Shown here: in pieces, positions 1-19,120 of the stretch
Layout of the letters: each line of letters starts with the position of its first letter
Position numbering within the stretch: position 1 is the stretch's first letter
Source: Escherichia coli
GTDB lineage: Bacteria > Pseudomonadota > Gammaproteobacteria > Enterobacterales > Enterobacteriaceae
Reading direction: 5' to 3' (one strand)
Assembly (NCBI RefSeq): GCF_036507355.1
Contig: NZ_AP027877.1
DNA: 64,000 bases
The notes under the pieces: generated by a model
The model's database searches: none
The model's input: only the letters and a program-made list of their open reading frames with translations
What the model was told of the DNA's origin: nothing
Program-made: the position numbers and the translations under genes

Positions 1-96
1 GTCAACTCTGCTAAGATTTCAATATCGTTTTTGATCAATAAATTACGAATTGCTGCGATAGCAAGAGGATGGTCATCAATAATTATTGCGTTCATA
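1..96 (-). CDS. evgA: Response regulator EvgA, 5' end only (first 32 codons; rest lies beyond window start)
   Basis: Reverse-complement of 1-96 translates MNAIIIDDHPLAIAAIRNLLIKNDIEILAELT, matching the EvgA N-terminus as I recall it; divergent from emrK as in K-12. Confidence 0.88.
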
Positions 97-319
97 GATT
101 ATTCCCTTTGCAATGAAGCATCTCCCTTCTCCCTGTAGTAATACAGACATAAGGCATCATCTCATTTTCTCAATAAAAATAAGAAAATTTGAGCTTCCTT
201 TAAGATAATTCGACAAGTATACCATATAAATAGTCGGCATATATGAAATGTCAACAATAAAATTAGGGATTGTACCGATGATTTATAGTTTCACATTAGC
301 ACTATAAGTCTTCTCACTA

Positions 320-337
320 ATCCTACAGGCGTAAGAA
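320..337. promoter_or_regulatory. Candidate EvgA box in the evgA-emrK divergent intergenic region
   Basis: ATCCTACAGGCGTAAGAA: two 8-nt half-sites close to the recalled EvgA consensus TTCPyTACA / TGTAPuGAA separated by 2 nt. Confidence 0.4.
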
Positions 338-510
338 TTGTATTGCAAAAGCCACGGTTTAGTCCTCTGTTGTTTTTTTTGCACCTCATTTAAATTAGGC
401 CTCCAACGTTCCTGGGATAATGTGCAACACATGCACTGTGTTTGATATGAAGAATGAATACTCTTTTCATTCAATTCATAAATTTCATCTATGCGAAATG
501 AGAGATAAAA

Positions 511-1674
511 GTGGAACAGATTAATTCAAATAAAAAACATTCTAACAGAAGAAAATACTTTTCTTTATTGGCGGTAGTTTTATTTATTGCGTTTTCAGGT
601 GCCTATGCCTATTGGTCAATGGAATTAGAAGACATGATTAGTACAGATGACGCCTATGTCACGGGGAATGCAGATCCAATTTCTGCACAAGTCTCAGGTA
701 GTGTCACTGTAGTTAATCATAAAGATACGAACTACGTTCGACAGGGTGACATTTTAGTTTCACTGGATAAAACTGATGCCACTATCGCACTCAATAAAGC
801 TAAAAATAATCTGGCAAATATTGTTCGGCAAACGAATAAACTATACTTACAGGATAAACAATACAGTGCCGAAGTCGCTTCAGCACGTATTCAGTATCAA
901 CAATCTTTAGAAGATTATAACCGTCGTGTGCCTTTAGCGAAGCAGGGGGTTATTTCAAAAGAAACGCTGGAGCATACCAAAGATACGTTAATAAGTAGCA
1001 AAGCGGCATTGAATGCCGCTATCCAGGCTTATAAAGCGAATAAAGCTTTAGTAATGAACACACCATTAAACCGTCAGCCACAAGTCGTTGAAGCTGCGGA
1101 TGCAACCAAAGAAGCCTGGTTGGCGCTTAAACGTACGGATATTAAGAGTCCGGTTACCGGCTATATTGCCCAGAGAAGTGTTCAGGTCGGCGAAACAGTG
1201 AGCCCCGGACAATCGTTAATGGCTGTCGTACCGGCACGTCAAATGTGGGTTAATGCCAACTTTAAAGAAACACAACTCACGGATGTACGGATTGGTCAAT
1301 CGGTCAATATTATCAGCGATCTTTATGGTGAGAATGTTGTGTTTCATGGCCGGGTGACAGGGATCAATATGGGAACCGGCAATGCGTTCTCCTTATTACC
1401 TGCACAAAATGCGACAGGGAACTGGATCAAAATCGTTCAGCGTGTACCGGTTGAAGTTTCTCTTGATCCAAAAGAACTCATGGAACACCCCTTGCGCATT
1501 GGTTTATCGATGACTGCAACTATTGATACGAAGGACGAAGACATTGCTGAGATGCCTGATCTGGCTTCAACCGTGACCTCCATGCCTGCTTATACCAGTA
1601 AGGCTTTAGTTATCGATACCAGTCCGATAGAAAAAGAAATTAGCAACATTATTTCGCATAATGGACAACTTTAA
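511..1674 (+). CDS. emrK: Multidrug efflux membrane fusion protein EmrK
   Basis: 387-aa ORF with GTG start, HlyD-family periplasmic adaptor sequence; stop overlaps emrY start (ATGG... at 1674). Confidence 0.9.
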   Translation: MEQINSNKKHSNRRKYFSLLAVVLFIAFSGAYAYWSMELEDMISTDDAYVTGNADPISAQVSGSVTVVNHKDTNYVRQGDILVSLDKTDATIALNKAKNNLANIVRQTNKLYLQDKQYSAEVASARIQYQQSLEDYNRRVPLAKQGVISKETLEHTKDTLISSKAALNAAIQAYKANKALVMNTPLNRQPQVVEAADATKEAWLALKRTDIKSPVTGYIAQRSVQVGETVSPGQSLMAVVPARQMWVNANFKETQLTDVRIGQSVNIISDLYGENVVFHGRVTGINMGTGNAFSLLPAQNATGNWIKIVQRVPVEVSLDPKELMEHPLRIGLSMTATIDTKDEDIAEMPDLASTVTSMPAYTSKALVIDTSPIEKEISNIISHNGQL

Positions 1675-3212
1675 TGGCAATCACTAAATCAACTCCGGCA
1701 CCATTAACCGGTGGGACGTTATGGTGCGTCACTATTGCATTGTCATTAGCGACGTTTATGCAAATGTTGGATTCCACTATTTCTAACGTCGCAATACCGA
1801 CAATATCTGGCTTTCTGGGAGCATCAACAGACGAAGGTACCTGGGTTATCACTTCGTTTGGCGTAGCAAATGCCATTGCGATCCCTGTTACCGGCAGGCT
1901 GGCACAAAGAATAGGCGAATTAAGGTTATTTTTACTTTCAGTCACTTTTTTTTCGCTGTCTTCCTTAATGTGTAGTTTATCGACCAATCTTGATGTGCTG
2001 ATATTTTTTAGAGTCGTTCAGGGGTTAATGGCGGGGCCGTTAATTCCACTGTCACAGAGTTTATTATTAAGGAATTATCCACCAGAAAAAAGGACATTTG
2101 CTCTGGCATTATGGTCAATGACCGTGATTATCGCTCCGATATGTGGGCCGATATTGGGCGGCTATATTTGTGATAACTTTAGCTGGGGTTGGATATTTTT
2201 AATCAATGTCCCTATGGGGATTATCGTCCTGACATTATGCTTAACCTTACTTAAAGGAAGAGAAACTGAGACTTCACCGGTCAAAATGAATCTACCAGGA
2301 CTGACCCTGTTAGTGCTCGGTGTTGGTGGCTTGCAAATTATGCTTGATAAAGGGCGCGATCTGGATTGGTTCAACTCGAGTACAATAATAATATTAACAG
2401 TAGTATCAGTTATTTCTCTGATCTCTTTAGTCATTTGGGAGTCGACCTCAGAGAACCCGATTCTTGATCTCAGTTTGTTTAAGTCCCGTAATTTCACCAT
2501 TGGTATTGTGAGTATCACATGCGCGTATTTATTTTACTCTGGAGCGATCGTCCTTATGCCGCAGTTATTCCAGGAAACGATGGGGTATAATGCGATATGG
2601 GCCGGACTTGCTTATGCGCCCATCGGCATCATGCCACTATTAATTTCACCTTTGATAGGACGTTATGGCAACAAAATAGACATGCGGTTGTTAGTGACAT
2701 TTAGTTTTTTGATGTATGCGGTTTGCTATTACTGGCGTTCTGTGACATTTATGCCAACGATTGATTTTACAGGTATCATTTTGCCGCAGTTTTTTCAGGG
2801 ATTCGCCGTTGCCTGTTTCTTTTTACCCTTAACAACGATTTCGTTTTCAGGCTTGCCAGATAATAAATTTGCCAATGCCTCGAGTATGAGTAATTTTTTT
2901 CGTACCTTGTCAGGATCAGTTGGTACATCGTTGACAATGACGCTGTGGGGGCGACGCGAATCGTTACACCATAGTCAGTTGACAGCAACCATCGATCAAT
3001 TTAACCCTGTATTTAATTCATCGTCACAAATTATGGATAAATACTATGGTTCGCTTTCAGGAGTTCTTAATGAAATTAATAATGAAATAACCCAGCAGTC
3101 ACTTTCTATTTCTGCAAATGAGATTTTCCGTATGGCGGCTATTGCTTTTATCTTACTTACGGTTTTGGTTTGGTTTGCGAAACCGCCGTTTACAGCGAAA
3201 GGCGTTGGGTGA
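1674..3212 (+). CDS. emrY: MFS multidrug efflux pump EmrY
   Basis: 512-aa ORF, multi-TM MFS (DHA2-like) protein, translationally coupled to emrK. Confidence 0.9.
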   Translation: MAITKSTPAPLTGGTLWCVTIALSLATFMQMLDSTISNVAIPTISGFLGASTDEGTWVITSFGVANAIAIPVTGRLAQRIGELRLFLLSVTFFSLSSLMCSLSTNLDVLIFFRVVQGLMAGPLIPLSQSLLLRNYPPEKRTFALALWSMTVIIAPICGPILGGYICDNFSWGWIFLINVPMGIIVLTLCLTLLKGRETETSPVKMNLPGLTLLVLGVGGLQIMLDKGRDLDWFNSSTIIILTVVSVISLISLVIWESTSENPILDLSLFKSRNFTIGIVSITCAYLFYSGAIVLMPQLFQETMGYNAIWAGLAYAPIGIMPLLISPLIGRYGNKIDMRLLVTFSFLMYAVCYYWRSVTFMPTIDFTGIILPQFFQGFAVACFFLPLTTISFSGLPDNKFANASSMSNFFRTLSGSVGTSLTMTLWGRRESLHHSQLTATIDQFNPVFNSSSQIMDKYYGSLSGVLNEINNEITQQSLSISANEIFRMAAIAFILLTVLVWFAKPPFTAKGVG

Positions 3213-3319
3213 TGGTAAAAGCAGGGGGTTATAGCGGGTAAGACCGGGGATCTTAAGTCTGCGCCATCGGCAGCATCGCTCACCCAGGGAAAGGATGGCG
3301 ATGCTGCGTTGAAATGTTA

Positions 3320-3568
3320 TTAACGGCCTTTTGCCAGATATTGATTCATCTCTTCTTCCGGCACCATTCCACCTCCCGTCGCCCACACCAGATGAGTGGC
3401 ATTACGCAGTTGTTCTGCGCTGAAACCGTGCATCAGTTGGTAACTTACTGATGCACACACGCGCTGAGGTCCGGCCATACCCGCCAGTGCCGAAGGTTCA
3501 AGACGAATACCTTCTTCCTGCGCCAACCCAAGAATTACAGTGCGGTTAGATGGCGGAAAGCCGGTCAA
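3320..3568 (-). pseudogene. dsdA: 3' remnant of D-serine dehydratase gene (about 83 C-terminal codons)
   Basis: Minus-strand frame ends ...[24 protein letters not shown], the DsdA C-terminus as recalled; similarity stops near 3570, after which the frame reads non-DsdA sequence; the track ORF uses an alternative TTG start. Confidence 0.75.
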
Positions 3569-3572
3569 GAGT

Positions 3573-3767
3573 GTTTGGGGAGGTGGGGAAGGCGGTGATT
3601 CTGCATTTGCTCCACAACCAATACAATTTATAAAGACCTTGGCTAAGCATAAAAAAGCTATTTTTGGGTTTGAACCTTATGGATCAACTATGCAAGTAGT
3701 TGAGTTTGACTTGTCTGAGATTGATAAGGTTGTGGAAAAAATTTCACAGTCTTGCAATTGGAAATAA
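3573..3767 (+). other. Open frame ending ...MQVVEFDLSEIDKVVEKISQSCNWK*, possibly the 3' end of an unknown gene in AT-rich foreign DNA
   Basis: Track ORF 3540-3767; its 5' part overlaps the dsdA remnant so only the distal part is plausible. Confidence 0.2.
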
Positions 3768-3784
3768 CAAAAAAATCTCATATG

Positions 3785-3808
3785 AACCCAGTTGGCTCTG
3801 GGTTTTTT
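3785..3808 (+). terminator. Rho-independent terminator
   Basis: AACCCAG-TTGGCT-CTGGGTT hairpin followed by TTTTTTATTT. Confidence 0.55.
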
Positions 3809-4145
3809 ATTTCTGTTGTCTATAATGTATTCATAATTTTTACTGGGATACAGTGCACATAAAATCCCAATTGCGGTAGGACGATAACTGGATCAGGTGG
3901 AGGCACTTACGCAAGAATTGATAGTATTAATTTGCATAGAGCAACGCGAAGTTATTTATAAATTAACTGATATAGAGTACTAGATGTAATCCGAACCGGT
4001 TATGATTCGTCACCAATTTTGCAAGAGGCTGGGTAGGTAAGCTATTGGATACCGTAGGTAGCAAAAATATAGAAGGAGGGGAAGAATTGCTAAACTCGAG
4101 CATTCACTTAAATCTGAGTTATTTATTGTTAAGATATAATACACT

Positions 4146-4409
4146 TTGAATAATAGAGGCTATATGACAACGAAAATAAGCAAAGATGATAAACATCTGC
4201 TTGATCCTTATTTAAAATGGCTTGCAAACAAGAAGCTAATGGTTGCCTTCTGGTTGGTGCTAATGATATGTGGTTGCATATATGCATATATAGAAAATGA
4301 TTGGTCACTTCTTCCCCGATTCGGATGTTTAGGCATAATGATTGGCACATTGCTTACTCTTTCTCCGCTTTTTGCAGAAGGTATCTACCTATCAAGGCGA
4401 GAAGCATGA
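4146..4409 (+). CDS. Hypothetical small membrane protein (87 aa, two predicted TM helices); stop codon supplied by the IS end
   Basis: ORF with hydrophobic segments LMVAFWLVLMICGCIYAYI and GCLGIMIGTLLTLSPLF; TGA at 4407-4409 is the first 3 nt of the IS, so the native 3' end may be lost. Confidence 0.35.
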   Translation: MNNRGYMTTKISKDDKHLLDPYLKWLANKKLMVAFWLVLMICGCIYAYIENDWSLLPRFGCLGIMIGTLLTLSPLFAEGIYLSRREA

Positions 4410-4424
4410 ATCGCCACGGATAAT

Positions 4425-5237
4425 CTAGACACTTCCGAGCCGTTGATAATACTGGTTTTCATATTCTGTCGGTGACATCTGATCGCTGGAACCATGCCGA
4501 CGCTTACTGTTATAAAACATTTCGATGTAATCAAAAATATCGCTGCGGGCTTCTTCCCGCGTTCCGTAGATCTTTTTCTTTATCCGTTCGCGTTTCAACA
4601 ACTGGAAAAAGCTTTCTGCAACCGCATTATCATGGCAGTTACCGCGACGGCTCATGCTGCCATCCAGGCCGTGTGATTTCAGGAACGACTGCCACTCATG
4701 GCTTGTGTACTGACTGCCCTGATCCGAATGAACCAGCACCTGTTTTTGGGGATTACGGCGCCATACAGCCATCAGCAGTGCGTTCAGGACAATGTCCTTT
4801 GTCATCCGGGATTGCATGGACCAGCCGATAATTTTGCGTGAGAACAGATCAACAACCACGGCAAGATACAGCCAGCCTTCGTGGGTCCTGATGTAGGTTA
4901 TGTCCGTTACCCAACGCTTATCCGGAGCATCCGGATTGAACTGTCGCTGGAGCCTGTTGGGCGACACGATACTGGCCTCGCCTTTACGTGCCCGCGGGCT
5001 CCGGTATCCGACCTGAGCCTTTATCCCGACACGTTTCATCAGTCGCCAGACTCTGTTCACTCCGCACTGTTGCCCGCTGTCCCGCAGATCCAGATGGATT
5101 TTGCGATAACCATAGACGCATCCCGATTCCAGCCAGAACTGTTTAATCTGCCCTGTCAGCCTCAGGTCTGCCTGATGGCGTTGTGAATGCGGCTGCTGAA
5201 GCCAGGCGTAAAAACCACTGGGATGAACATCCAGCAC
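4425..5237 (-). CDS. IS3-family transposase OrfB (DDE integrase domain); expressed as OrfAB fusion by -1 frameshift
   Basis: 270-aa ORF from first Met; motifs DITYIRTHEGWLYLAVVVDLFSRKIIGW and HSDQGSQYTS; frame stays open upstream of the Met. Confidence 0.8.
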   Translation of the reverse strand: MLDVHPSGFYAWLQQPHSQRHQADLRLTGQIKQFWLESGCVYGYRKIHLDLRDSGQQCGVNRVWRLMKRVGIKAQVGYRSPRARKGEASIVSPNRLQRQFNPDAPDKRWVTDITYIRTHEGWLYLAVVVDLFSRKIIGWSMQSRMTKDIVLNALLMAVWRRNPQKQVLVHSDQGSQYTSHEWQSFLKSHGLDGSMSRRGNCHDNAVAESFFQLLKRERIKKKIYGTREEARSDIFDYIEMFYNSKRRHGSSDQMSPTEYENQYYQRLGSV

Positions 5238-5293
5238 CCGACAGAGCAGGCGAACAGGCCAGCAACAGGTGTTGTCACGGATAAAGGCGTACC

Positions 5294-5578
5294 TCAGTCG
5301 GACAGCTTTGCGAAGTACGCCGCGGCTTTTTTTAATATGTCCCGTTCGTCGGTAACCCGCTTCAGCTCTTTCTGGAGACGGCGGATCTCGGCCTGAGCAT
5401 CTGACTGTTCTTTATTAGCGGAAGAATCCGGACCGTACTTCTTTATCCAGGCGTAAAGGCTGTGGGTGGTGATATCGAGACGTGTTGCAACGCTGGCAAC
5501 AGAATAACCGCGATCAACAACCTGTTTGACTGCTTCAATTTTAAACTCTTCGGGATAACGCTTACCGCTCATGGGCAC
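5294..5578 (-). CDS. IS3-family transposase OrfA (HTH plus leucine zipper)
   Basis: 94-aa ORF MPMSGKRYPEEFKIEAVKQV...; ends near an A7G slippery run. Confidence 0.8.
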   Translation of the reverse strand: MPMSGKRYPEEFKIEAVKQVVDRGYSVASVATRLDITTHSLYAWIKKYGPDSSANKEQSDAQAEIRRLQKELKRVTDERDILKKAAAYFAKLSD

Positions 5579-5635
5579 CTCTCTTTAAGCCATCTTAAAT
5601 GACTCTGAGGTGTCTGTTAAACCCGTGGCGATTCA

Positions 5636-6036
5636 GGAAGAGTTCGAAATACGCAGCGAAATTGTTGGAATTCAAATTAGTTGATCTTGACGTTCTTAAG
5701 CGAACATACTTCTTTTTTGCAGACCGTTATCTGGCAGATGTAGTGAAGTTTGAAAACCTATGTGGTGATTTAGAGCATACATCGCAGAAGGCTAGGGATG
5801 AAAAAATTAAGGCCATGCAATTAAAGACAAACGACCCTGAAATTCAGTTAGGTGTTTGTATTTTTGTTTGTTTCAGGTTGCGAAACAACCTTTTTCATGG
5901 ACCAAAATGGCGTTATTTGCTTGATGGGCAAGAGGATTTGCTCTTAATTGCCGGAAATTTTATACATTCTATTCTATTACAGGTGCCTAGTAGAGATGGC
6001 TGGGAATTCAAGAATATTTTAACTTCTACTGATTAG
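5636..6036 (+). pseudogene. 3' fragment of an Abi-like (Abi_2 / HEPN-type) abortive-infection gene, truncated at the IS boundary
   Basis: Open frame starts exactly at the IS end with no start codon; C-terminal ...FRLRNNLFHGPKWRYLLDGQEDLLL contains an Rx4H HEPN-like motif; AT-rich. Confidence 0.4.
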
Positions 6037-6221
6037 CTTTGATTTTCCATAATCAACCCGCCATAATCATGTCATCGGAGCCTGAACAACTCCGGTGACT
6101 TCTGCGCTTTGAGGGGACTCAAAGTGCAAACGACAATCAGAACACCTTTCAACCAGTCACAGATGCAGAAATGCACCTGCAATATCTTGCATCCAACGTT
6201 TGACCTCTGCGGAGGTGAAGC

Positions 6222-6677
6222 GTGAACCTCCCACAAGACGGCATCAAATTACATCGCGGTAACTTCACTGCTATCGGTCAGCAGATCCAGCCTTATCTGG
6301 AGGAAGGCAAATGCTTTCGCATGGTGCTTAAACCGTGGCGGGAGAGACGCAGTCTTTCCCAGAATGCACTCAGCCACATGTGGTACAGCGAAATCAGTGA
6401 ATACCTCATCAGCAGGGGTAAAACGTTCGCCACTCCAGATTGGGTAAAAGATGCTCTCAAACACACTTATCTCGGTTATGAAACCAAAGAACTGGTTGAT
6501 GTCGTAACCGGTGAGATCACCACTATCCAGTCGTTACGCCATACCTCCGATCTTGATACCGGAGAGATGTATATCTTCCTGTGTAAGGTTGAAGCCTGGG
6601 CGGTGAATATTGACTGCCACCTGACTATTCCGCAGAGCTGCGAGTTCCAGCTGCTGCGCGACAAGCAGGAGGCGTAA
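6222..6677 (+). CDS. YbcN-like / NinB-family phage protein
   Basis: 151-aa ORF, GTG start, position and size as ybcN in DLP12-type nin regions. Confidence 0.55.
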
Positions 6678-6839
6678 TGGCTACACCGCTTATTCGTGTC
6701 ATGAACGGACACATCTACAAAGTACCAAATCGTCGTAAGCGTAACCCTGAGCTGAAGCCATCCGAAATACCAACTCTGCTCGGATATACCGCCAGCCTGG
6801 TTGATAAAAAATGGTTGCGACTGGCAGCAAGGAGGAATC

Positions 6840-7130
6840 ATGGCTGATTTGAGAAAAGCAGCGCGTGGTCGGGAATGCCAGGTAAGAATCCCTGGCGTAT
6901 GTAATAGCAATTCTGAAACGTCTGTACTGGCACATATCCGGCTGGCTGGATTGTGCGGTACCGGTATCAAACCGCCAGACCTGATTGCCACCATCGCATG
7001 TTCTGCCTATCACGACGAAATCGACCGCCGCACACATTTTGTCGATGCTGAGTATGCAAAAGAATGCGCGCTGGAAGGTATGGCGAGAACACAGGTTATC
7101 TGGCTGAAAGAGGGGGTTATTAAGGCGTGA
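6840..7130 (+). CDS. YbcO-like (DUF1364) phage protein
   Basis: [22 protein letters not shown]...[13 protein letters not shown], matches recalled DLP12 YbcO; upstream of rusA as in DLP12. Confidence 0.6.
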
Positions 7131-7489
7131 ATACTTACAGCATCACATTACCCTGGCCTCCGAGCAATAATCGCTATTACCGCCATAATCGCGGGCGCAC
7201 GCACATCAGCGCAGAGGGGCAGGCATACCGCGATAACGTCGCCCGAATCATTAAAAACGCAATGCTGGATATCGGCCTGGCTATTCCTGTGAAAATCCGC
7301 ATTGAGTGTCACATGCCGGATCGCCGTCGCCGTGACCTGGATAATCTGCAAAAAGCTGCTTTTGACGCACTTACCAAAGCAGGTTTCTGGCTGGATGATG
7401 CTCAGGTCGTTGATTACCGCGTTGTGAAGATGCCGGTTGTCAAAGGTGGAAAGCTGGAACTGACCATCACTGAACTGGGAGATGAATGA
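7127..7489 (+). CDS. rusA: Holliday junction resolvase RusA
   Basis: 120 aa, [26 protein letters not shown]..., near-identical to recalled RusA. Confidence 0.9.
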
Positions 7490-7626
7490 TGTTTGAGTTT
7501 TATACGGCAGAACTTCTTCGCCACCGCTGGATGCGCCTGCGCTTATATCGTTTCCCCGGTTCTGTTTTGACCGATTACCGAATACTGAGGAATTACGCCA
7601 AAACCCTGACAGGAGCAGGAGTATGA
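7489..7626 (+). CDS. ylcG: YlcG-like small phage protein (45 aa)
   Basis: ATG overlapping rusA stop (ATGA coupling); [24 protein letters not shown]...; below the ORF-track size cutoff, read by hand. Confidence 0.5.
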   Translation: MFEFYTAELLRHRWMRLRLYRFPGSVLTDYRILRNYAKTLTGAGV

Positions 7627-7696
7627 AGTCAGAGATAACAATCAACTAATACTGTTTTGTTGATTTTTGCTTGTAATTGGCGTTCTGGTCTGATTT

Positions 7697-8089
7697 TTGT
7701 GGAGTAAGTTGATGCGTGATATTCAGATGGTTCTTGAGCGTTGGGGAGCGTGGGCGGCTAATAATCATGAAGATGTGACCTGGTCGTCCATTGCCGCCGG
7801 TTTTAAGGGATTAATTCCTTCAAAAGTAAAATCTCGCCCACAATGTTGTGACGATGACGCGATGATCATTTGCGGGTGCATGGCCCGTCTGAAAAAGAAC
7901 AACAGCGATTTGCATGATTTATTGGTGGACTATTATGTCGGCGGCATGACTTTTATGGCGCTTGCACGTAAGCATGGGCGATCTGATTGTTGGGTTGGCA
8001 GGATGCTCCAGAAAGCTGAGGGCGTAGTGGAGGGTATGCTGATGGTGTTGGATCTCCGATTGGAGATGGATGCTGATTGTTCGAAATAA
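7697..8089 (+). CDS. Late-gene antitermination protein Q (QuuD / phage-82-type)
   Basis: 130-aa ORF (true start may be Met at 7712); Cys-rich zinc-binding region [16 protein letters not shown]; followed by terminator tR'. Confidence 0.8.
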
Positions 8090-8187
8090 TTAAAGGAAAA
8101 GTTGCTGTCTGATTGTCATTAGTCTAACATTTTAAATGTTGGAATCGCAACGTAGTTATTATCATATAACAGCTTGTTTCCTGATTT
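8090..8187 (+). promoter_or_regulatory. Probable late promoter pR' / qut region
   Basis: Position immediately 3' of Q and 5' of a strong terminator, as in lambdoid late control regions; promoter hexamers not confidently assigned. Confidence 0.3.
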
Positions 8188-8217
8188 AGCCAGCCTCCCC
8201 AAAGGCTGGTTTTTTTC
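8188..8217 (+). terminator. Rho-independent terminator (tR'-like)
   Basis: AGCCAGCCT-CCCCAA-AGGCTGGT hairpin followed by TTTTTTT. Confidence 0.55.
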
Positions 8218-8244
8218 TAATAAGTATTATTTCGGGTAGGGATT

Positions 8245-8769
8245 TTATTGTTTAACCCATAATAATTCATTGACATTGAATCCCAACTTTTGAGCGGTTC
8301 GCACATAGTCTGCTTTTACTTTATCTGGAATAGTTGGGGTCCTTGCCAGAATCCATAGGTATTCTCTGTTCGGACCACTGACAAGAGCATACTTATACTC
8401 ATCATCCAGTTTGATTACATTATAGCCACCATAGAAGGGGCCAAAAAACGAAACCTTCAATGCTGCAGTTTTAGTATCTCCAGTAAAGTATGCTTTACCT
8501 TCGCTCTCGCTCCATTTATTTTTCGTTGGATCGTATCCACGGTTAAGTACACGAATCCCTCCGTCGTTCCGTTTTCCATAAGTAGCGCTGACCTGTTCCA
8601 GATCACGTTCGAACCGGTTCTCGAGGCGAGCTATTTCATACCATTTTCCGAGGTAGCGGTTGGCGTCAAAATTTGTAATCGGCTGCACACCTTTAGGTGG
8701 TGTCGGGGCCTTACATGCTATAAGAGTGAAAGAGAGTGCAATGCCAGTCAACACAGGCCATAACTTCAT
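8245..8769 (-). CDS. Outer-membrane lipocalin, Blc homologue (lipoprotein)
   Basis: 174 aa; lipobox LIAC; NFDANRYLGKWYEIARLENRFERDLEQV...KVSFFGPFYGGYNVI closely parallels E. coli Blc; opposite strand to phage late genes. Confidence 0.85.
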   Translation of the reverse strand: MKLWPVLTGIALSFTLIACKAPTPPKGVQPITNFDANRYLGKWYEIARLENRFERDLEQVSATYGKRNDGGIRVLNRGYDPTKNKWSESEGKAYFTGDTKTAALKVSFFGPFYGGYNVIKLDDEYKYALVSGPNREYLWILARTPTIPDKVKADYVRTAQKLGFNVNELLWVKQ

Positions 8770-8961
8770 AATAAATCCTGTACTTTTGATAGTTGAGAGT
8801 AAGTATGAAAGATAGATGATTACGACCGATCACTTAAAGAACTTTCATACTATATTAGGAATAGTCCATAACAGAAAAATTGTCAGTGATGACGCCAGAA
8901 AGGCAATTTATTCCGTGCACTACACAGTTTATGTGTTAATGAATTAGTCAAGGGGGAGAAT

Positions 8962-9921
8962 ATGATAAAAAAACCTGTGATTGGAATCAGCGGTTGTTTG
9001 GCCGGTTCTGCTGTTCGTTTTGATGGTGGTCACAAAAGAGCTGACTTTTTAATGGACAAATTAGTGGAATGGGTAACATTCAGACCAGTATGTCCGGAAA
9101 TGGCTATAGGGCTGCCAGTTCCGCGTCCTGCTCTACGTCTTGTGCGCTCGACGCAAGGAAATATACGGATGTGTTTCAGCCACGACCAGAATGAGGATGT
9201 GACAGAGAGAATGACAGAGTTTAGTCGTTCTTATATGGACAAATTAAAGGATGTATCGGGGTTTGTGGTTTGTGCTAAATCTCCCAGCTGTGGCATGGAG
9301 CGCGTGCGTGTCTATGATGAAAATGGTAATCGAGGTCGTAAAGATGGAGTGGGACTATTTACGAGTACTTTGATGGAAAAGTTTTCCTGGCTACCGGTTG
9401 AAGAGGATGGGCGATTACATGATCCAGTGCTTCGTGAGAATTTTGTTGAAAGAGTTTTTGCTTTGCATGAGCTCAATCACCTTTACAAGGAGAAATTATC
9501 AAGAAGAGAGTTATTAGCTTTTCATAGTCGTTATAAGCTTCAGTTGTTGGCGCATAGTCAGGCAGGCTATAAAGATATGGGACCATTTGTGGCTGCAATA
9601 CACGAGTGGGCGGACCTTGAATCATACTTTGAGGTGTATCGTGATAAGCTGATGGCGATTCTCAGAAAACCTGCATCACGTAAAAATCACACGAATGTGC
9701 TGATGCATATACAGGGGTATTTTAGTAACTACTTAAGTACACGCCAGCGTAAAGAGTTGAGCGAGGTTATACTTAACTATCGTTCTGGCACATTACCTCT
9801 TCTTGCGCCGTTGACTCTGCTGAAGCATTATCTGGGTGAGTATCCTAATGATTACTTGCTTACACAGAATTACTTCGATCCCTATCCGGACGAACTGGCT
9901 CTAAGACTGATGGTAAATTAA
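8962..9921 (+). CDS. DUF523 (TudS-like thiouracil desulfidase, Fe-S) fused to DUF1722 (YbgA-like) protein
   Basis: 319 aa; N-terminal GISGCLAGSAVRFDGG, PVCPEMAIGLPVPR and SPSCGMERV cysteine motifs typical of DUF523; C-terminal LRENFVERVFALHEL...YKLQLLAHSQAGY typical of DUF1722. Confidence 0.55.
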   Translation: MIKKPVIGISGCLAGSAVRFDGGHKRADFLMDKLVEWVTFRPVCPEMAIGLPVPRPALRLVRSTQGNIRMCFSHDQNEDVTERMTEFSRSYMDKLKDVSGFVVCAKSPSCGMERVRVYDENGNRGRKDGVGLFTSTLMEKFSWLPVEEDGRLHDPVLRENFVERVFALHELNHLYKEKLSRRELLAFHSRYKLQLLAHSQAGYKDMGPFVAAIHEWADLESYFEVYRDKLMAILRKPASRKNHTNVLMHIQGYFSNYLSTRQRKELSEVILNYRSGTLPLLAPLTLLKHYLGEYPNDYLLTQNYFDPYPDELALRLMVN

Positions 9922-10263
9922 TTGTATGCGATATCATCCAAAAGGATGAGTTCCTGCATGCAGGATATTTACAATCGTAAAAACTACACTATGATACCCA
10001 GAGTGTCAGTTTGTATAAAAACTCTGTTTACGCTGAAGAAACAATTGAGATGCAACTTAAAGTTGGTAAACATGCCAGTCAAAATATATAATATTATGAT
10101 TCCACGCAGCTATATATAATATAACAGATTGGTTTAATAATTTGTCTTTGTGAGTTAAATACATAATTTTATACTTGTGATGCAATGAAATTTTCCTTAT
10201 TGTTGAACTGGCGAATATTGATTTTCCACCTATACTTACCTGGTGTAACCCCAATGATATCAG

Positions 10264-11004
10264 GTGGATAATATGCCATACATATGTTCTATCATTTTGG
10301 TGTTGAACTCGTTTGATGTCCGAATTGGTAAAGAAGATATTTTGTTTAAAAAAGGAAGTGCTGTTCTCATTGATTACAATTTAAAAGATTTTTTTTCATC
10401 AAATATAGATCATGTAATGATCGTAGATGTTGAAGAGAAAACAGTTAATGATTTCTTTAAAAGCAACACACTCTCACCTTTTTCTGTAAGAAGGTTTTAT
10501 CCGGCATACTTGATGGTGGAATGTGAAGATTTTTCATTGTTAAAGAACTTGATTGCATGCTTGAATTGTGATGGCAGAACTGTGGATTTTGTTAGAAATC
10601 AAATATCACTTGCATGTCTTGCTATCTTATCTTCAGAGAAAATAGTGCAAAGTTTTTTATTTGGATGTCTTAATAGTTTAGGAAGTAAAGTTAAGGCTAT
10701 TATTCACACGGATATATCTGCAGCATGGAGACTTTGTGATATATCTTCAAGACTGTATCTGAGTGAAAGTCTGTTAAAAAGAAAATTAAAGCACGAAGGC
10801 TTATCATTTAGTAAGTTAATTCTTGAAGAGCGAATGGTGATGGCGGAAAGGTTATTAAGCTACAATTTATATTCTGTTGGAAAAGTTGCTGAGATATGCG
10901 GTTATGAAAACACGTCATATTTTGTGAGTGTTTTCAGAAGATATTTTGGTGTTCCTCCCCATCAATATTCATCAAGATTTTTTTTAGAAAAAGACATGAT
11001 GTAA
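10264..11004 (+). CDS. AraC-family transcriptional regulator, AppY/EnvY-like
   Basis: 246 aa; C-terminal double HTH (WRLCDISSRLYLSESLLKRKLK...VGKVAEICGYENTSYFVSVFRRYFGVPP); very AT-rich gene and upstream region. Confidence 0.8.
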   Translation: MDNMPYICSIILVLNSFDVRIGKEDILFKKGSAVLIDYNLKDFFSSNIDHVMIVDVEEKTVNDFFKSNTLSPFSVRRFYPAYLMVECEDFSLLKNLIACLNCDGRTVDFVRNQISLACLAILSSEKIVQSFLFGCLNSLGSKVKAIIHTDISAAWRLCDISSRLYLSESLLKRKLKHEGLSFSKLILEERMVMAERLLSYNLYSVGKVAEICGYENTSYFVSVFRRYFGVPPHQYSSRFFLEKDMM

Positions 11005-11065
11005 CATGATGCGTTTTAATGATTTTGTAATTTTCGTATTTGATAATTGTATGATGCTTTCAGCT

Positions 11066-11097
11066 ACGCCAGAATAATCGCTGGCGTTTTTCTTTTT
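11066..11097 (+). terminator. Rho-independent terminator after the AraC-like gene
   Basis: ACGCCAG-AATAATCG-CTGGCGT hairpin followed by TTTTTCTTTTT. Confidence 0.4.
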
Positions 11098-11192
11098 GAA
11101 TAGATGTTCAAGCCTTACGCTAATGTAACTTCTATACCTTTCCTCTTCGTTCCGAACCGTGTACACCATCCGTTATTTGCGGAGGTGAGGCT

Positions 11193-11408
11193 ATGAAATC
11201 TATGGATAAGTTAACAACGGGCATTGCCTACGGCACCTCCGCAGGCAGTGCTGGCTACTGGTTTTTACAGTTGCTCGATAAAGTCACGCCCTCACAGTGG
11301 GCAGCAATAGGTGTGCTGGGTAGCCTGGTATTTGGCCTGCTGACGTACCTGACAAACCTTTATTTCAAGATTAAAGAAGATAAGCGCAAGGCTGCGAGAG
11401 GTGAATAA
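11193..11408 (+). CDS. Class II holin (phage-21 S21-type pinholin)
   Basis: 71 aa, [26 protein letters not shown]..., two TM segments, matches recalled S21/EssD. Confidence 0.85.
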
Positions 11409-11905
11409 TGCCTCCATCATTACGAAAAGCCGTTGCTGCTGCTATTGGTGGCGGAGCAATTGCTATAGCATCAGTGTTAATCACTGGCCCAAGTGGTAAC
11501 GATGGTCTGGAAGGTGTCAGCTACATACCATACAAAGATATTGTTGGTGTATGGACTGTATGTCACGGGCATACAGGAAAAGACATCATGCTCGGTAAAA
11601 CGTATACCAAAGCAGAATGCAAAGCCCTCCTGAATAAAGACCTTGCCACGGTCGCCAGACAAATTAACCCGTACATAAAAGTTGATATACCGGAAACAAC
11701 GCGCGGCGCTCTTTACTTGTTCGTTTACAACGTGGGCGCTGGCAATTTCAGAACATCGACGCTTCTTCGCAAAATAAACCAGGGCGATATCAAAGGCGCA
11801 TGTGATCAGCTACGTCGCTGGACATATGCTGGCGGTAAGCAATGGAAAGGGCTGATGACTCGCCGTGAGATTGAGCGTGAAGTCTGTTTGTGGGGGCAAC
11901 AATGA
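11408..11905 (+). CDS. SAR endolysin (phage-21 R-type lysozyme)
   Basis: 165 aa; N-terminal Gly/Ala-rich signal-anchor-release segment [18 protein letters not shown]; lysozyme catalytic region. Confidence 0.88.
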
Positions 11906-12345
11906 GTAGAGTAACCGCGATTATCTCCGCTCTGGTTATCAGCATCATCGTCTGCCTGTCATGGGCTGTTAATCATTACCGTGATAACGCCATGACCTAC
12001 AAAGAACAGCGCGACAAAGCCACATCCATCATCGCTGACATGCAGAAGCGTCAACATGATGTAGCAGAACTCGACGCCAGATACACAAAGGAGCTTGCTG
12101 ATGCTAACGCGACTATCGAAAGTCTTCGTGCTGATGTTTCTGCTGGTCGTAAGTGGCTGCACGTCAAAGCAGTCTGTCCGGACAAGCATAAAACCACCGC
12201 CGCCTCCGGCGTGGATGATGCTTCCAGCCCCAGACTTACTGACACCGCTCAACGGGATTATTTCGTTCTCAGAGAGCGCATCGAAACCATAACTAACCAA
12301 TTGAATGGCCTGCAAGAATATGTGAGATCACAGTGTTCATATTAG
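11902..12345 (+). CDS. i-spanin Rz
   Basis: N-terminal TM helix then coiled-coil periplasmic domain; overlaps endolysin stop. Confidence 0.8.
12101..12292 (+). CDS. o-spanin Rz1 (lipoprotein) embedded in +1 frame of Rz
   Basis: Lipobox LVVSGC followed by Pro-rich stretch KPPPPPAW; entirely inside Rz. Confidence 0.65.
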
Positions 12346-12758
12346 AAAAGTCTTATCATAAGATTTTTGTATATGGATGCATTATGTCTCAATACGCTCA
12401 CGTTGCTTTAATCGCTTATCATTTGGTGGCTGATAGCTCAATGACTCCTCGTGATGCATGGGATGCAGCTATCGCAGAGGTTACAGAAAGCGAATCGTCA
12501 AGAAAGAAGATATGCCCAAGGGCAACATTTCTCGCCCTGGCGGATAGCGGTTACCTGAAGAATGTAAAACCACTGCATGGGGAGAAAAAGGGCGGTAAGT
12601 TGTACCAAAGGGCAATTGAAGTTGCGAATCTGATTCTTGATTTACCCGGAATCAGTAAAGCTGAATTGGTTGATAAAACTGGTTACAAAGACAGGCAAGG
12701 GTCTTATGACCTGATTCTCGCTCTGTATCATCATGAGCAACTCCAGCGATCGGAATAA
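12333..12758 (+). CDS. YbcV-like hypothetical phage protein
   Basis: 141-aa ORF (start possibly Met at 12386) at the position of ybcV in DLP12; no recognisable motif. Confidence 0.4.
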
Positions 12759-12875
12759 TTATCCCAGCATCAGTGTCAAAAATAGGCAGTGATACGCTAT
12801 TTTCCTGAAAATACTTTACTAACATTTTATGAGAATTATCCTAGTAATGTGTTTATTTAAAAGGAGTTTGGGTTT

Positions 12876-13079
12876 ATGAAAATTCTCTGGGTCATCAGTC
12901 TTTTGTGTAGTGCTATTGGATTTATTGAAGGAATCCTCGGGGTTTTCGGTGCTCAGAGTGCTCCACAACAGGCTGCAGGTGCAGCAATGGGAGTAGCATG
13001 GGCAGTTATTCCATATTGTATTTGTCGTGCTATCCAACAATTGCGCCCTCGAGAAGTCATTATTAAAAAGGAAGAATGA
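12876..13079 (+). CDS. YbcW-like small membrane protein (67 aa)
   Basis: ORF with RBS-like GGAG upstream; two hydrophobic segments. Confidence 0.4.
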   Translation: MKILWVISLLCSAIGFIEGILGVFGAQSAPQQAAGAAMGVAWAVIPYCICRAIQQLRPREVIIKKEE

Positions 13080-13144
13080 CCAGATCTTATCCGGTGTTTT
13101 TTCTGTCTAAGCCTCGCGTCGCGGGGCTTTTTATTGGAGCCAGC

Positions 13145-13495
13145 ATGCCACCACGAACACCAAAAGCCTGCCGTGTTCGCGGCTGCCGCCATACCACAAC
13201 TGACCCGTCAGGCTATTGCGAAAGCCACAAAAGTGAAGGCTGGAAGCAATACAAGCCGGGCCAGTCCAGACACCAGCGCGGTTATGGTTCGAAATGGGAT
13301 GTTATCCGTGAACGTGTGCTCAAGCGTGACAAAGGACTGTGTCAGTTATGTCTGCGTGGTGGTGTGGTACGTGAGGCGAAAACCGTTGACCACATCATCC
13401 CTAAAGCGCATGGCGGCACTGATGCCGACAGCAATCTGCAGAGCCTGTGCTGGCCGTGTCATAAGGCGAAGACGGCCCGTGAACGGTTGAAGTAA
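13145..13495 (+). CDS. HNH endonuclease (packaging-associated)
   Basis: CxxC...DHIIPKAHGGTDADSNLQSLCWPCH HNH motif; directly upstream of terminase genes; start taken at MPPRTPKA. Confidence 0.8.
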   Translation: MPPRTPKACRVRGCRHTTTDPSGYCESHKSEGWKQYKPGQSRHQRGYGSKWDVIRERVLKRDKGLCQLCLRGGVVREAKTVDHIIPKAHGGTDADSNLQSLCWPCHKAKTARERLK

Positions 13496-13611
13496 GAACC
13501 AGTTCCCACTGCCAGAGGGGAGGGGCGGGTCAAATCCCTGTGACCTGACGTCTTCCGGACTGCCCGCCCCATCGTTTTTTTATACCCGCGAAAAATGAAA
13601 TTTAACCAGGA

Positions 13612-14115
13612 GTGCCGCATATGGCTGGAACGGCGGGGCGTTCCGGGCGTCGCCCCAAGCCAACGGCGCGCAAGGCGCTGGCCGGAAACCCCGGCAAGCG
13701 AGCCCTGAATAAAGATGAACCTGTTTTTACGCCCATCAAAGGTGTTGAGCCACCGGAGTGGTTCGCTGAAGAAGATCTCCCTCTCGCCACGATCATGTGG
13801 CAACTGACAACCAAAGAACTCTGCGGTCAGGGCCTGCTGTGCGTGACTGACCTGGCGGTACTTGAGCGGTGGTGTGTGGCCTATGAGTTCTGGCGACGTG
13901 CCGTGAAAAATATTGCCAGACAGGGCAACACCATCACCGGTGCAATGGGCGGTATGGTCAAAAATCCTGAGCTGACCGCCAAAAAAGAACAGGAGTCCGA
14001 GATGAGCAGTACGGGGGCAATGCTCGGACTCGACCCCAGCAGCCGCCAGCGTCTGATTGGCCTGGCGGGGCAGAAGAAAGCCACTAACCCGTTTCTGAAA
14101 ATTATCGAATCATGA
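13612..14115 (+). CDS. Terminase small subunit (P27 family)
   Basis: 167-aa ORF preceding and overlapping terL; terminase small-subunit-like sequence. Confidence 0.7.
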
Positions 14116-15845
14116 GCCGGAAATCTTACCCCAACGTAAATGCTGCCAATCAGTATGCCCGGGATGTCGTTCGCGGAAAGATTGTGGCCTGCCAGTTTGT
14201 GATTCAGGCCTGCCAGCGCCATCTTGATGACCTGATGGCGGAAAAAAGTAAGTCGTTTCGTTACCGCTTCGACAAGGACCTGGCTGAACGGGCCGCCAAA
14301 TTTATTCAGCTGTTGCCGCATACCAAGGGTGAGTGGGCATTCAAACGGATGCCCATCACGCTGGAGCCGTGGCAGCTCTTTGTGATCTGCTGTGCGTTTG
14401 GCTGGGTCAATAAAGGTACCCGGCTGCGCCGCTTCCGGGAGGTGTATACCGAAATCCCCCGTAAGAACGGCAAATCGGCAATCTCTGCCGGTGTTGCCCT
14501 GTATTGTTTTGCCTGTGATAACGAGTTTGGCGCGGAAGTGTATTCCGGTGCCACGACAGAGAAACAGGCGTGGGAAGTCTTTCGCCCGGCGCGACTGATG
14601 TGTAAACGCACACCCATGCTGACGGAAGCGTTCGGGATTGAGGTTAACGCCTCAAACATGAACCGTCCGGAGGATGGCGCGCGGTTTGAACCGCTGATCG
14701 GTAACCCCGGTGATGGTTCATCACCCCACTGTGCTGTGGTGGATGAATATCACGAGCATGCCACAGATGCACTTTACACCACGATGCTTACCGGGATGGG
14801 CGCGCGACGTCAGCCACTGATGTGGGCCATTACTACTGCCGGGTACAACATTGAGGGGCCGTGCTACGACAAGCGGCGGGAAGTCATCGAGATGCTCAAC
14901 GGCTCGGTGCCCAACGATGAACTGTTCGGGATCATCTATACCGTTGATGAAGGTGACGACTGGACCGACCCGCAGGTGCTGGAAAAAGCCAATCCAAATA
15001 TTGGCGTGTCGGTTTATCGCGAATTTTTGTTAAGTCAGCAGCAGCGTGCGAAAAATAACGCCCGTCTGGCAAACGTCTTTAAAACAAAACACCTCAATAT
15101 CTGGGTGTCGGCGCGTTCGGCGTATTTCAACCTGGTGAGCTGGCAGAGCTGCGAGGATAAATCACTGACCCTTGAGCAGTTCGAGGGGCAGCCGTGCATT
15201 CTGGCCTTTGACCTGGCGCGCAAGCTGGATATGAACAGCATGGCGCGACTTTATACCCGCGAGATTGACGGTAAAACGCATTACTACAGTGTGGCCCCGC
15301 GTTTCTGGGTACCGTATGACACGGTGTACAGCGTCGAGAAAAATGAAGATCGCCGGACAGCCGAACGCTTTCAGAAATGGGTGGAAATGGGCGTTCTGAC
15401 CGTTACCGATGGTGCGGAGGTGGATTATCGCTACATCCTCGAGGAGGCCAAAGCGGCGAACAAAATCAGCCCGGTCAGTGAGTCACCCATCGACCCCTTC
15501 GGGGCGACCGGGTTGTCACATGACCTTGCTGATGAAGACCTGAACCCCATCACTATCATTCAGAACTACACCAACATGTCCGACCCGATGAAAGAGCTGG
15601 AAGCGGCAATTGAATCGGGGCGCTTTCATCATGATGGCAATCCCATCATGACCTGGTGTATCGGCAACGTGGTCGGCAAAACCATTCCGGGTAACGATGA
15701 TGTGGTGAAGCCCGTCAAAGAGCAGGCGGAAAACAAAATCGATGGTGCAGTTGCGCTGATTATGGCGGTTGGCAGAGCCATGCTGTACGAGAAAGAAGAC
15801 ACGCTGTCTGACCACATTGAGTCCTATGGGATCCGCTCGCTTTAA
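14112..15845 (+). CDS. Terminase large subunit
   Basis: 577 aa; ATPase and nuclease regions typical of TerL. Confidence 0.9.
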
Positions 15846-15856
15846 CTGAGGTAATT

Positions 15857-16039
15857 ATGATCATGCTGATTCTCGCGCCTCTGGTGGGCGTGCTGGGGGC
15901 GCTTTTGCTGGCGTATGGTGCCTGGCTGATTTATCCCCCGGCGGGGTTTGTTGTTGCCGGGGCGTTGTGCCTGTTCTGGTCGTGGCTGGTGGCGCGATAT
16001 CTCGACCGTACACAGTCGTCTGTCGGCGGAGGTAAATAG
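15857..16039 (+). CDS. Small hydrophobic phage protein (60 aa)
   Basis: ORF between terL and portal, mostly hydrophobic. Confidence 0.3.
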
Positions 16040-17280
16040 TGTTCTTTTCGGGATTATTTCAACGAAAAAGTGACGCACCGGTGACCACGCCAGCAGAGCT
16101 GGCGGATGCTATCGGGTTGTCCTACGACACCTATACCGGAAAGCAGATCAGCAGCCAGCGGGCCATGCGACTGACGGCGGTTTTTTCCTGTGTCAGGGTG
16201 CTGGCGGAGTCGGTCGGGATGTTGCCCTGCAACCTGTATCACCTGAACGGCAGCCTGAAGCAGAGAGCCACTGGCGAACGTCTGCATAAGCTGATCTCCA
16301 CGCATCCCAATGGCTATATGACGCCGCAGGAGTTCTGGGAGCTGGTGGTCACCTGTCTGTGCCTGCGGGGAAACTTTTACGCCTACAAAGTGAAAGCATT
16401 TGGCGAAGTGGCTGAACTGCTGCCCGTCGATCCCGGCTGTGTGGTACCGAAGCTTAACAGTAGCTGGGAGCCGATCTATCAGGTCACATTCCCGGATGGC
16501 TCCACGGATGTACTGAGCCAGGAGGATATCTGGCATGTGCGCACGCTGACGCTGGACGGACTGGTGGGGCTGAATCCCATCGCCTATGCCCGCGAGGCAA
16601 TATCGCTGGCAGCTGCGACCGAAGAGCACGGGGCCAGACTGTTCAGCAATGGCGCGGTGACGTCGGGTGTGTTGCGTACAGAGCAGACGCTGTCAGATCA
16701 GGCTTATGAGCGCCTGAAGAAAGATTTTGAGGAGCGTCACACCGGGCTTGGCAATGCTCACCGCCCGATGATCCTTGAGATGGGGCTGGACTGGAAGTCG
16801 ATGGCGCTGAACGCCGAGGACAGCCAGTTCCTGGAAACCCGCAAGTTTCAGCTTGAAGAAATCTGTCGTCTGTTCCGGGTGCCGTTGCACATGGTGCAGA
16901 ACACCGATCGCGCCACCTTCAACAATATCGAAGAGCTGGGGCTGGGATTTATCAACTATTCACTGGTGCCGTATCTGACCCGCATCGAACAGCGGATCAA
17001 CACCGGACTGGTACGAAAAAGTAAGCAGGGCGTTTATTACGCCAAATTTAACGCCGGGGCGTTACTGCGCGGGGATATGAAGTCCCGTTTTGAAGCCTAC
17101 GCCACCGGGATCAACTGGGGAATTTACTCTCCCAATGACTGCCGCGACCTGGAAGATATGAATCCGCGTCCCGGTGGTGATGTCTATCTCACACCGATGA
17201 ACATGACCACGAAACCCTCCGATGGCAGTAAGGCCGGTAAGCAGAAGGATAACGCCAATGCAGACGAAACAACGTCTTGA
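16039..17280 (+). CDS. Portal protein (HK97 family)
   Basis: 413 aa, position after terL, portal-like sequence. Confidence 0.85.
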   Translation: MFFSGLFQRKSDAPVTTPAELADAIGLSYDTYTGKQISSQRAMRLTAVFSCVRVLAESVGMLPCNLYHLNGSLKQRATGERLHKLISTHPNGYMTPQEFWELVVTCLCLRGNFYAYKVKAFGEVAELLPVDPGCVVPKLNSSWEPIYQVTFPDGSTDVLSQEDIWHVRTLTLDGLVGLNPIAYAREAISLAAATEEHGARLFSNGAVTSGVLRTEQTLSDQAYERLKKDFEERHTGLGNAHRPMILEMGLDWKSMALNAEDSQFLETRKFQLEEICRLFRVPLHMVQNTDRATFNNIEELGLGFINYSLVPYLTRIEQRINTGLVRKSKQGVYYAKFNAGALLRGDMKSRFEAYATGINWGIYSPNDCRDLEDMNPRPGGDVYLTPMNMTTKPSDGSKAGKQKDNANADETTS

Positions 17281-17908: not shown

Positions 17909-17922
17909 TCAGGAGAAATACG

Positions 17923-18938: not shown

Positions 18939-19120
18939 TGAAAGAGCTTGAGTTAAAGAAACCGATTACCGCTCATGGCGAGACACTCTCCGTACTGGAG
19001 TTTGATGAGCCCACCGGGAAAGATGTCCGCGAGCTGGGATATCCCTACCAGATGAATCAGGATGAGTCCGTCAGACTTCTGGCGCATGTGGTATCGAAAT
19101 ACATCGTGCGGCTGCCCTGA
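18938..19120 (+). CDS. Hypothetical phage protein (60 aa)
   Basis: ORF with ATGA overlap to next gene. Confidence 0.3.

Follow-up and report, generated by a model that had tools for sequence, protein, structure and literature searches.

What became of the D-serine locus in this Escherichia coli chromosome, and what is the AT-rich DNA that now stands in its place? The stretch of DNA analysed here (64,000 nucleotides, hereafter the window) begins in the evgA-emrK-emrY region, with emrK at 511-1674 and emrY at 1674-3212 on the plus strand, the latter being an intact 512-aa ORF annotated as emrY in matching E. coli genomes. It is followed by a convergent but incomplete dsdA, and both the emrY/dsdA intergenic sequence and this orientation are the same as in E. 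coli genomes. Further downstream, a prophage reaches argW and is followed by yfdC, mlaA, fadL, fadIJ, sixA and the yfc fimbrial genes, in the order known from other E. coli. The initial annotation, which interpreted the 1.1 kb from emrY to an insertion sequence (IS), proposed that the locus had been replaced by DNA of unknown origin. As detailed below, one deletion running from inside a resident argW prophage into dsdA very probably explains the junction.

The dsdA remnant (3320-3525, minus strand), as delimited by similarity to intact dsdA, consists of the stop codon, 67 complete codons and two additional nucleotides. BLAST and alignment showed that, up to 3525, it is 99.8-100% identical to the intact dsdA of E. 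coli ECNB21-M121. Once translated, it matches the last 68 residues of the 442-aa DsdA, the 68th residue (Leu) being encoded by the junction codon, which was recreated by chance. Only DsdA residues 375/376-442 are encoded, and the frame of about 442 codons with the N-terminal PLP-binding part was not found. The truncation initially described is hence genuine, but the approximately 83 codons assigned to the remnant are about 15 too many, and similarity to dsdA, which was thought to end at about 3570, stops 45 bases earlier, at 3525, for both DNA and protein. In the 82-aa ORF present at 3320-3568, the first 14 codons are antisense phage sequence. The absence of dsdX and dsdC was corroborated, DsdX and DsdC giving no match across the 64-kb window by either tblastn or blastn, and the dsdCXA DNA of strain LSC52 matches the window at 3213-3525 only. 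The csc genes and the dsdX remnant or stub typical of csc strains are likewise absent from the whole 64-kb window.

A three-way alignment of the window, intact dsdA and the phage IdasGreatGrand located the switch at 3524-3525. The window matches intact dsdA through 3525 (...CTTCTTCCTGCGCCA) and the phage from 3524 (CAACCCAAGAATTAC...), the dinucleotide CA alone being common to dsdA and the phage gene; the end points of the BLAST matches to dsdA and phage overlap at the same two positions. This CA sits inside an imperfect 11-12-nt patch of similarity, which reads GCCAGCCAAG in dsdA and GACAACCCAAG in the phage. The break joins two unique sequences, with no mobile-element end or att site there and the nearest IS end 881 bp away. 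Such a junction has the appearance of a short-homology, recombinase-independent deletion. A microhomology of 2 bp is close to chance and says little on the enzymology involved, and the sequence cannot discriminate between slippage, breakage-rejoining and an aberrant excision attempt.

On the other side of the junction, the DNA is that of a phage. Its AT-richness, correctly pointed out from the start, is pronounced, with a GC content of 0.376 for 3526-4406 and 0.354 for 3768-4163 versus 0.539 in the dsdA remnant, the rest of the prophage being at 0.50. Its origin, presented as unknown, can be assigned: the nin region of the lambdoid phage IdasGreatGrand (Escherichia; PP925829) matches 3524-4407 at 99.5% identity, and a lambdoid prophage present in E. 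coli S21 and H14 does so at 99%. In IdasGreatGrand and S21, this segment sits between ren and ninB, 2.2-3.9 kb upstream of DNA which matches the window from 6037/6071 onward in the same orientation. The segment is collinear with the ninB-Q block that follows and with the rest of the prophage, to which it belongs, instead of lying between emrY and the prophage as initially described.

These data bear directly on the proposal that an AT-rich island, independent of the prophage, supplanted dsdCX together with the beginning of dsdA. In its favour, replacement at the argW-dsdCXA hotspot is documented (PMC4366372; PMC8787464) and the GC content of the segment is far below that of its neighbours. Nevertheless, this scenario is highly improbable, as the segment corresponds to nin-region DNA at 99-99.5% identity, neither of its genes is complete, the same prophage carries on beyond the IS in the right order and orientation, and the prophage lacks exactly the part expected between the segment and dsdC.

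The first gene of the segment (3525-3767, plus strand) is the 3' remnant of a VasI/TagO-like gene, encoding residues 85-164 and the stop of a 164-aa phage protein with a signal peptide (secreted), whose RefSeq name in S21 is TagO. The full-length protein matches phrog_1848, a PHROGs family with no assigned function (E 2.7e-70), and more modestly Pfam VasI PF11319 (6e-06). It is followed by a terminator-like hairpin and T-run (3784-3815, plus strand) with an 8-bp stem, a 6-nt loop and a TTTATTTCTG tail. Regarding the terminator proposed initially, the hairpin itself (3784-3805) and its T-run are present but statistical support is not, one site having been found by the terminator scan versus 1.3 expected in shuffled sequence; its credibility comes from its position 17 nt past the VasI-like stop codon, not from statistics. 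An AT-rich non-coding spacer of the nin region (3768-4163; 396 nt, 35% GC) extends to the second gene. No Rfam family was detected in this spacer at E<=1, and it contains a promoter-like site at 4126-4154, a type of site no commoner than in shuffled sequence.

The second gene (4164-4406, plus strand) is the 5' part of a membrane-protein gene cut by the IS. It corresponds to the first 81 codons of a three-helix phage protein of 134 aa, and these 81 residues are identical to the IdasGreatGrand protein, which has hydropathy peaks at residues 25-43, 53-71 and 111-129. The ORF at 4164-4409 retains two hydrophobic helices and, as already recognised, borrows its stop from the IS, whose terminal repeat opens with the TGA at 4407-4409. 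Its counterpart in S21 is WP_032227093.1, and no family match was obtained in PHROGs, Pfam or PADLOC. A defence role was considered for the VasI-like protein, the membrane protein and a 195-aa protein encoded beyond the IS, and was rejected: there was no PADLOC match, and PHROGs and Pfam returned only a family with no assigned function and the modest VasI hit.

Judging from gene content and composition, the AT-rich DNA appears to be commonplace low-GC phage cargo (a "moron"), with a putative terminator of its own. Phage morons are low-GC cargo genes which bring their own promoter and terminator and are inserted between conserved lambdoid genes; similarly, the VasI-like gene, together with its terminator, and the membrane-protein gene are low-GC units found between ren and ninB in only a subset of lambdoid phages. 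Unlike working morons, both cargo genes are truncated here and are relics.

The IS3-family element which interrupts the membrane-protein gene (4407-5635, minus strand; 1229 bp) contains orfA (~5294-5578) and orfB (~4425-5237), which match the transposase model NCBIfam NF033516 with E-values of 1.9e-18 and 8.5e-101, respectively. A programmed frameshift is annotated in RefSeq copies of this IS, and copies 99.8-99.9% identical are present in many E. coli. Its terminal repeats begin TGAATCGCCACGG, at 4407, with the complement ending at 5635 (TG...CA). A second, identical copy with the same ends is found in inverted orientation 29.8 kb away (35440-36668, plus strand), where it replaces 4.7 kb of the yfc fimbrial operon. 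Neither copy is bordered by a target duplication, the flanks being GCA versus GGA for the first and GGG/TAA for the second. To the right of the first copy lies the 3' two-thirds of the 195-aa nin-region gene (5636-6036, plus strand), 99.3% identical to that of E. coli LR-50 (WP_029396318.1), so the left flank derives from the membrane-protein gene and the right one from a different, non-contiguous gene. The lack of target duplication and the non-contiguous flanks imply that the DNA 0.9 kb from the junction was rearranged at least once more, and point to IS-adjacent deletions having probably followed the arrival of the element.

With an IS only 881 bp from the junction, an identical inverted copy 29.8 kb further and the propensity of repeats to cause misassembly, it had to be considered whether the junction is an assembly join or chimera, a caveat expressed in the initial annotation, or whether it was made by the IS, through an adjacent deletion or an inversion between the two copies. 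An IS-mediated deletion was rejected on the basis that the break is located 881 bp from the IS end, between unique sequences. An inversion between the two copies was also rejected, the gene order being collinear with other E. coli from emrK to fadJ/sixA, with no net inversion, and the four flanks being devoid of reciprocal target duplications. Concerning an assembly join, an independent short-read assembly of another isolate argues against it. On this contig (L007, Logan assembly ERR3330519), evgS-evgA-emrK-emrY is accompanied by the dsdA junction seen in the window and by the IS end, and 2 of 4435 positions differ from the window; these two differences indicate a different isolate and hence an inherited junction, not an assembly artefact. 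An artefactual or IS-made junction is highly improbable. An exact-protein look-up of the truncated 81-aa product returned four contigs, L007 among them. In another of the four, a metagenome contig (L008), the IS insertion point is identical and the upstream VasI-like gene is intact, which indicates that the IS insertion preceded the deletion.

Beyond the 195-aa gene, the rest of a defective prophage extends to argW (6037-23777, plus strand), with ninB, ninE, rusA, Q, a lipocalin gene, a ybgA-like gene, lysis genes, terminase, portal, two internal deletions, an acyltransferase gene (21196-22320, minus strand) and intS (22461-23654, minus strand). The latter is located directly beside argW, on the same strand, and is 95.7% identical to intS of TB06052. 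The argW gene itself (23778-23854, minus strand) encodes a tRNA-Arg(CCT) delimited by ARAGORN at 23780-23854, with the att core at 23778-23794. This 17-bp core, AATGGTGTCCCCTGCAG (from PMC8787464), occurs once in the window, in the 3' end of argW. Positions 6037-12165 are 96.7% identical to, and collinear with, IdasGreatGrand, and collinearity from 6037 is also seen with S21. Among intact relatives, the best is the LSC52 prophage at argW, which covers 98% of 5636-23900 at 98% identity and whose late genes are collinear with the window at 97.7-98.9% identity except for two internal gaps.

The LSC52 prophage provides a reference for what is missing. From the dsd side, its order is dsdA, dsdX, dsdC, an ipuAB-upaE island, torI, early-left genes, exo/bet/gam and kil, then the repressor (cI), cro, a cII-like gene, O, P, ren, nin, Q, the lipocalin, ybgA-like and lysis genes, and finally terminase, head, tail, acyltransferase, intS and argW, in the same orientation as in the window. 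In TB06052, which is among the closest backbones, torI is also on the dsd/csc side and intS beside argW, and it has been described that in argW prophages, int adjoins yfdC while xis adjoins dsdC (Kapi1 paper, PMC8787464). Within the window, neither torI/xis nor a second att core (attR) was found at the dsdC-facing end, nor was any left-arm DNA of LSC52, TB06052 or IdasGreatGrand. This absence of the attR/torI side is what a deletion from the prophage into dsdA predicts. The prophage also lacks capsid and tail genes, and comparison with LSC52 disclosed two internal deletions: 1) 4.2 kb at 18135-18138, with a 4-bp GGCA overlap, and 2) 7.4 kb at 19102-19114, with an imperfect overlap of ~10 bp. 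With two further short-homology deletions, the prophage has been pared down repeatedly in this way.

Based on these comparisons, a scenario can be proposed. The ancestor would have carried, in argW, a lambdoid prophage of the KplE1/CPS-53 layout, with the order dsdA-dsdX-dsdC (or a variant of the locus), attR, torI (excisionase), early-left genes, repressor, O, P, ren, nin-region cargo, Q, lysis, head, tail, acyltransferase, intS and attL in argW. In a first step, the IS3-family element would have entered the nin region, in the gene for the small membrane protein. A single illegitimate, RecA-independent recombination would subsequently have joined dsdA, at about codon 375, to codon 85 of the VasI-like gene at the shared CA. 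The 5' 1.1 kb of dsdA, dsdX, dsdC, attR, torI and the recombination, immunity and replication genes would have been lost in this event. Judging from relatives, the deletion would amount to ~15 kb or more, made up of ~3.6 kb of dsd DNA, the dsdC-attR spacer and ~10-11 kb of prophage, and would be larger if an island lay between dsdC and attR. No genome was found with the exact same prophage and its left arm beside dsdC, and the model draws on mosaically related prophages.

A multi-step history would lead to the same end state with a different number and order of events. The dsd locus might have been altered earlier, for instance by csc replacement of dsdC and 5' dsdX, or the VasI-like/membrane-gene module might have come from a second prophage. 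A csc locus and a dsdX stub are carried by the strains that match the window at 100% identity over the emrY-dsdA 3' end, as well as by most contigs with the L007 emrY allele, and the non-contiguous IS flanks testify to other rearrangements nearby. Moreover, in S21 and H14 the nin-region cargo corresponding to 3524-4406 is carried by a prophage at argU, not argW, which leaves room for an earlier inter-prophage recombination. Against this, the window contains no csc or dsdX trace, the order of the module and the nin genes that follow is the one found in a free phage genome, making an extra step unneeded, and the present junction is one clean break. Several successive events are unlikely, and the single deletion is retained as the preferred explanation.

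Comparison with known systems helps to situate this deletion. At the argW hotspot, csc (sucrose) genes have replaced dsdC and 5' dsdX in E. coli O157:H7 and many strains of groups B1, D and E (PMC4366372). The dsd locus was rightly qualified as a known site of gene replacement, this hotspot being documented (PMC4366372; PMC8787464), but a csc-type replacement is not the event here. Both situations concern the same locus, csc replacement abolishes D-serine catabolism, as is predicted here, and it has likewise been invoked for lineage differences (PMC4366372). However, csc replacement keeps dsdA intact and inserts cscRAKB, while here no csc DNA is present and dsdA is reduced to 67 codons; in addition, the far side of the break is inside a prophage. 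Decayed argW prophages (CPS-53/KplE1 in K-12; CUS-3-like in K1) offer another parallel, with the same attachment site, intS at argW and torI/xis on the dsdC side. Decay of these prophages between dsdC and argW is documented, with loss of internal DNA bringing cargo nearer to dsdC (PMC9659370). In the decayed argW prophages described, remnants nonetheless stop at attR and dsdC is intact, whereas here the deletion would have crossed attR and taken the dsd genes.

In lambda genetics, aberrant (illegitimate) prophage excision, which yields specialised transducing phages, leaves a deletion in the chromosome. The pattern is the same as in the window, with one break in the prophage and one in host DNA, minimal homology, and one att site and host genes gone. 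Unlike a transducing phage, the piece excised here would lack cos, packaging and late genes and would not be packageable. Excision functions are not needed to account for the junction, as replication slippage or breakage-rejoining fits equally well.

The distribution of this arrangement was assessed by megablast of 3200-4420 against 5426 complete E. coli genomes. In nearly all of them, the match is confined to the initial 326-333 bases (emrY 3' end, intergenic sequence and dsdA 3' end), while S21 and H14 match query positions 325-1208, where the genes are annotated as 'TagO' and 'hypothetical protein'. None of the 5426 genomes covers 80% of the query. In this comparison with other E. coli genomes, of the kind recommended at the outset, 0 of 5426 genomes shared the junction, and the 34-mer spanning it (CCTTCTTCCTGCGCCAACCCAAGAATTACAGTGC), used as search probe, was found in none of the JGI metagenome contigs or GTDB species-representative genomes. 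With no complete genome and one other read-set assembly containing it, the genotype is sufficiently rare to mark a lineage, as had been suggested. None of the 5426 complete genomes is more than 98.8% identical to the window backbone; this best value indicates a lineage without representative in the complete E. coli set, possibly Shigella or a similar one. The exact EmrY sequence of the window had no counterpart on record, and the EmrY allele of L007 is too widespread to point to a lineage. By comparison, dsdA (at least 80% of the gene covered) is retained in 5378 of the 5426 genomes (99%), including csc strains, and dsdCXA has been reported to be carried by 38% of genomes (PMC4699771). Loss of dsdA itself is uncommon, whereas loss of dsdCX is common. 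The loss of dsdA in fewer than 1% of complete E. coli, the lack of a close relative among them and the IS-destroyed yfc operon are compatible with a selected loss.

Regarding function, this locus would no longer be able to produce D-serine deaminase (DsdA), the transporter DsdX or the regulator DsdC, since a 67-codon remnant lacks almost the whole enzyme. D-serine is described as bacteriostatic, dsdCXA permitting its use, in one account of the system (PMC4569052). The D-serine-negative phenotype initially proposed is a sound inference for this locus. It applies to the 64 kb visible and is not assertable genome-wide, because second dsdCXA copies exist in some E. coli, according to Moritz and Welch (2006) as cited in PMC4366372, and a DsdA of the leuX island is listed in PMC7545054. 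Likewise, with no excisionase, attR, repressor or replication genes, the prophage is predicted to be a fixed cryptic remnant, unable to excise.

It is conceivable, although unlikely, that the deletion was selected as pathoadaptive in a lineage of E. coli sensu lato that is host-restricted and undergoing IS expansion. The same event would then have both eliminated D-serine catabolism and DsdC and, through the loss of excision and lytic control, locked in the surface-modifying acyltransferase of the prophage. The event itself is ordinary genome decay, giving a rare genotype and a new structural allele of the hypervariable argW-dsd region, in which the only unusual point is that one deletion crossed attR into the chromosome. 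Its value is mainly for annotation and strain typing: the "unknown" DNA corresponds to the interior of a decayed argW prophage, and the exact junction marks a rare lineage. The full loss of dsdA, which is uncommon, may be of interest for the study of D-serine as a niche signal, and the locus adds one more case of prophage domestication by a deletion spilling into adjacent chromosomal genes.

A low-GC pair of genes located between ren and ninB (remnants at window 3525-4406; 4750-6045 in L004, a comparison sequence carrying the same pair) encodes a secreted VasI/TagO-like protein assigned to phrog_1848 and a 134-aa membrane protein with three helices. The pair was found in the Escherichia lambdoid phage IdasGreatGrand and in the E. 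coli strains S21 and H14, and two Klebsiella phages possess a stretch of the VasI/TagO-like gene with 71% identity. When the pair was compared with defence-system models, none matched.

Further cargo is located just 3' of the Q antiterminator, where a lipocalin (Blc-like) gene (8245-8769) is accompanied by a YbgA-family gene (8962-9921). Phage IdasGreatGrand shows an identical arrangement of these two genes after Q, and so does E. coli LSC52 in its intact argW prophage. Where the window prophage borders argW, an acyltransferase-family gene (21196-22320) adjoins intS and occupies the spot at which argW prophages have genes for surface modification, for example neuO or gtr. This acyltransferase-family gene is still present although the prophage is heavily decayed.

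Sequence comparison with the LSC52 prophage revealed two additional internal gaps in the window prophage. The first, a 4.2-kb deletion extending from the major capsid gene to the tail sheath gene, is marked by a 4-bp GGCA overlap at 18135-18138, and the second, a 7.4-kb deletion extending from the tape measure gene to the baseplate, by an overlap at 19102-19114 which is imperfect and about 10 bp long.

Across 5426 complete E. coli genomes, identity to the chromosomal backbone of the window (1-3523 and 23700-61000) does not exceed 98.8%, despite a conserved gene order. In emrY, the window differs at nucleotide 2568 from L007, a Logan contig of ERR3330519 sharing the dsdA junction, and the EmrY sequence of the window has no record in the protein collection searched. 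Because of this limited backbone identity and of the unrecorded EmrY, the source lineage of the window is taken to be missing from these complete genomes.

Within the backbone, the yfcO adhesin gene is interrupted by an additional insertion of about 1.06 kb (36983-38039), and a stretch of about 14 bp in the reference sequence has a match at both flanks of this insertion. The insertion contains an ORF (37042-38043) which, as judged by eye, resembles an IS30-family transposase. In the yfc fimbrial operon, 4.7 kb of sequence, from the usher gene to yfcP, is replaced by a second copy of the IS3-family element (35440-36668), around which a target duplication is absent. This copy is essentially identical to the first one, which cuts the 134-aa membrane-protein gene, and lies 29.8 kb away from it in inverted orientation. 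The segment comprising the prophage, argW and the fad genes could undergo inversion via these two inverted IS3-family copies.
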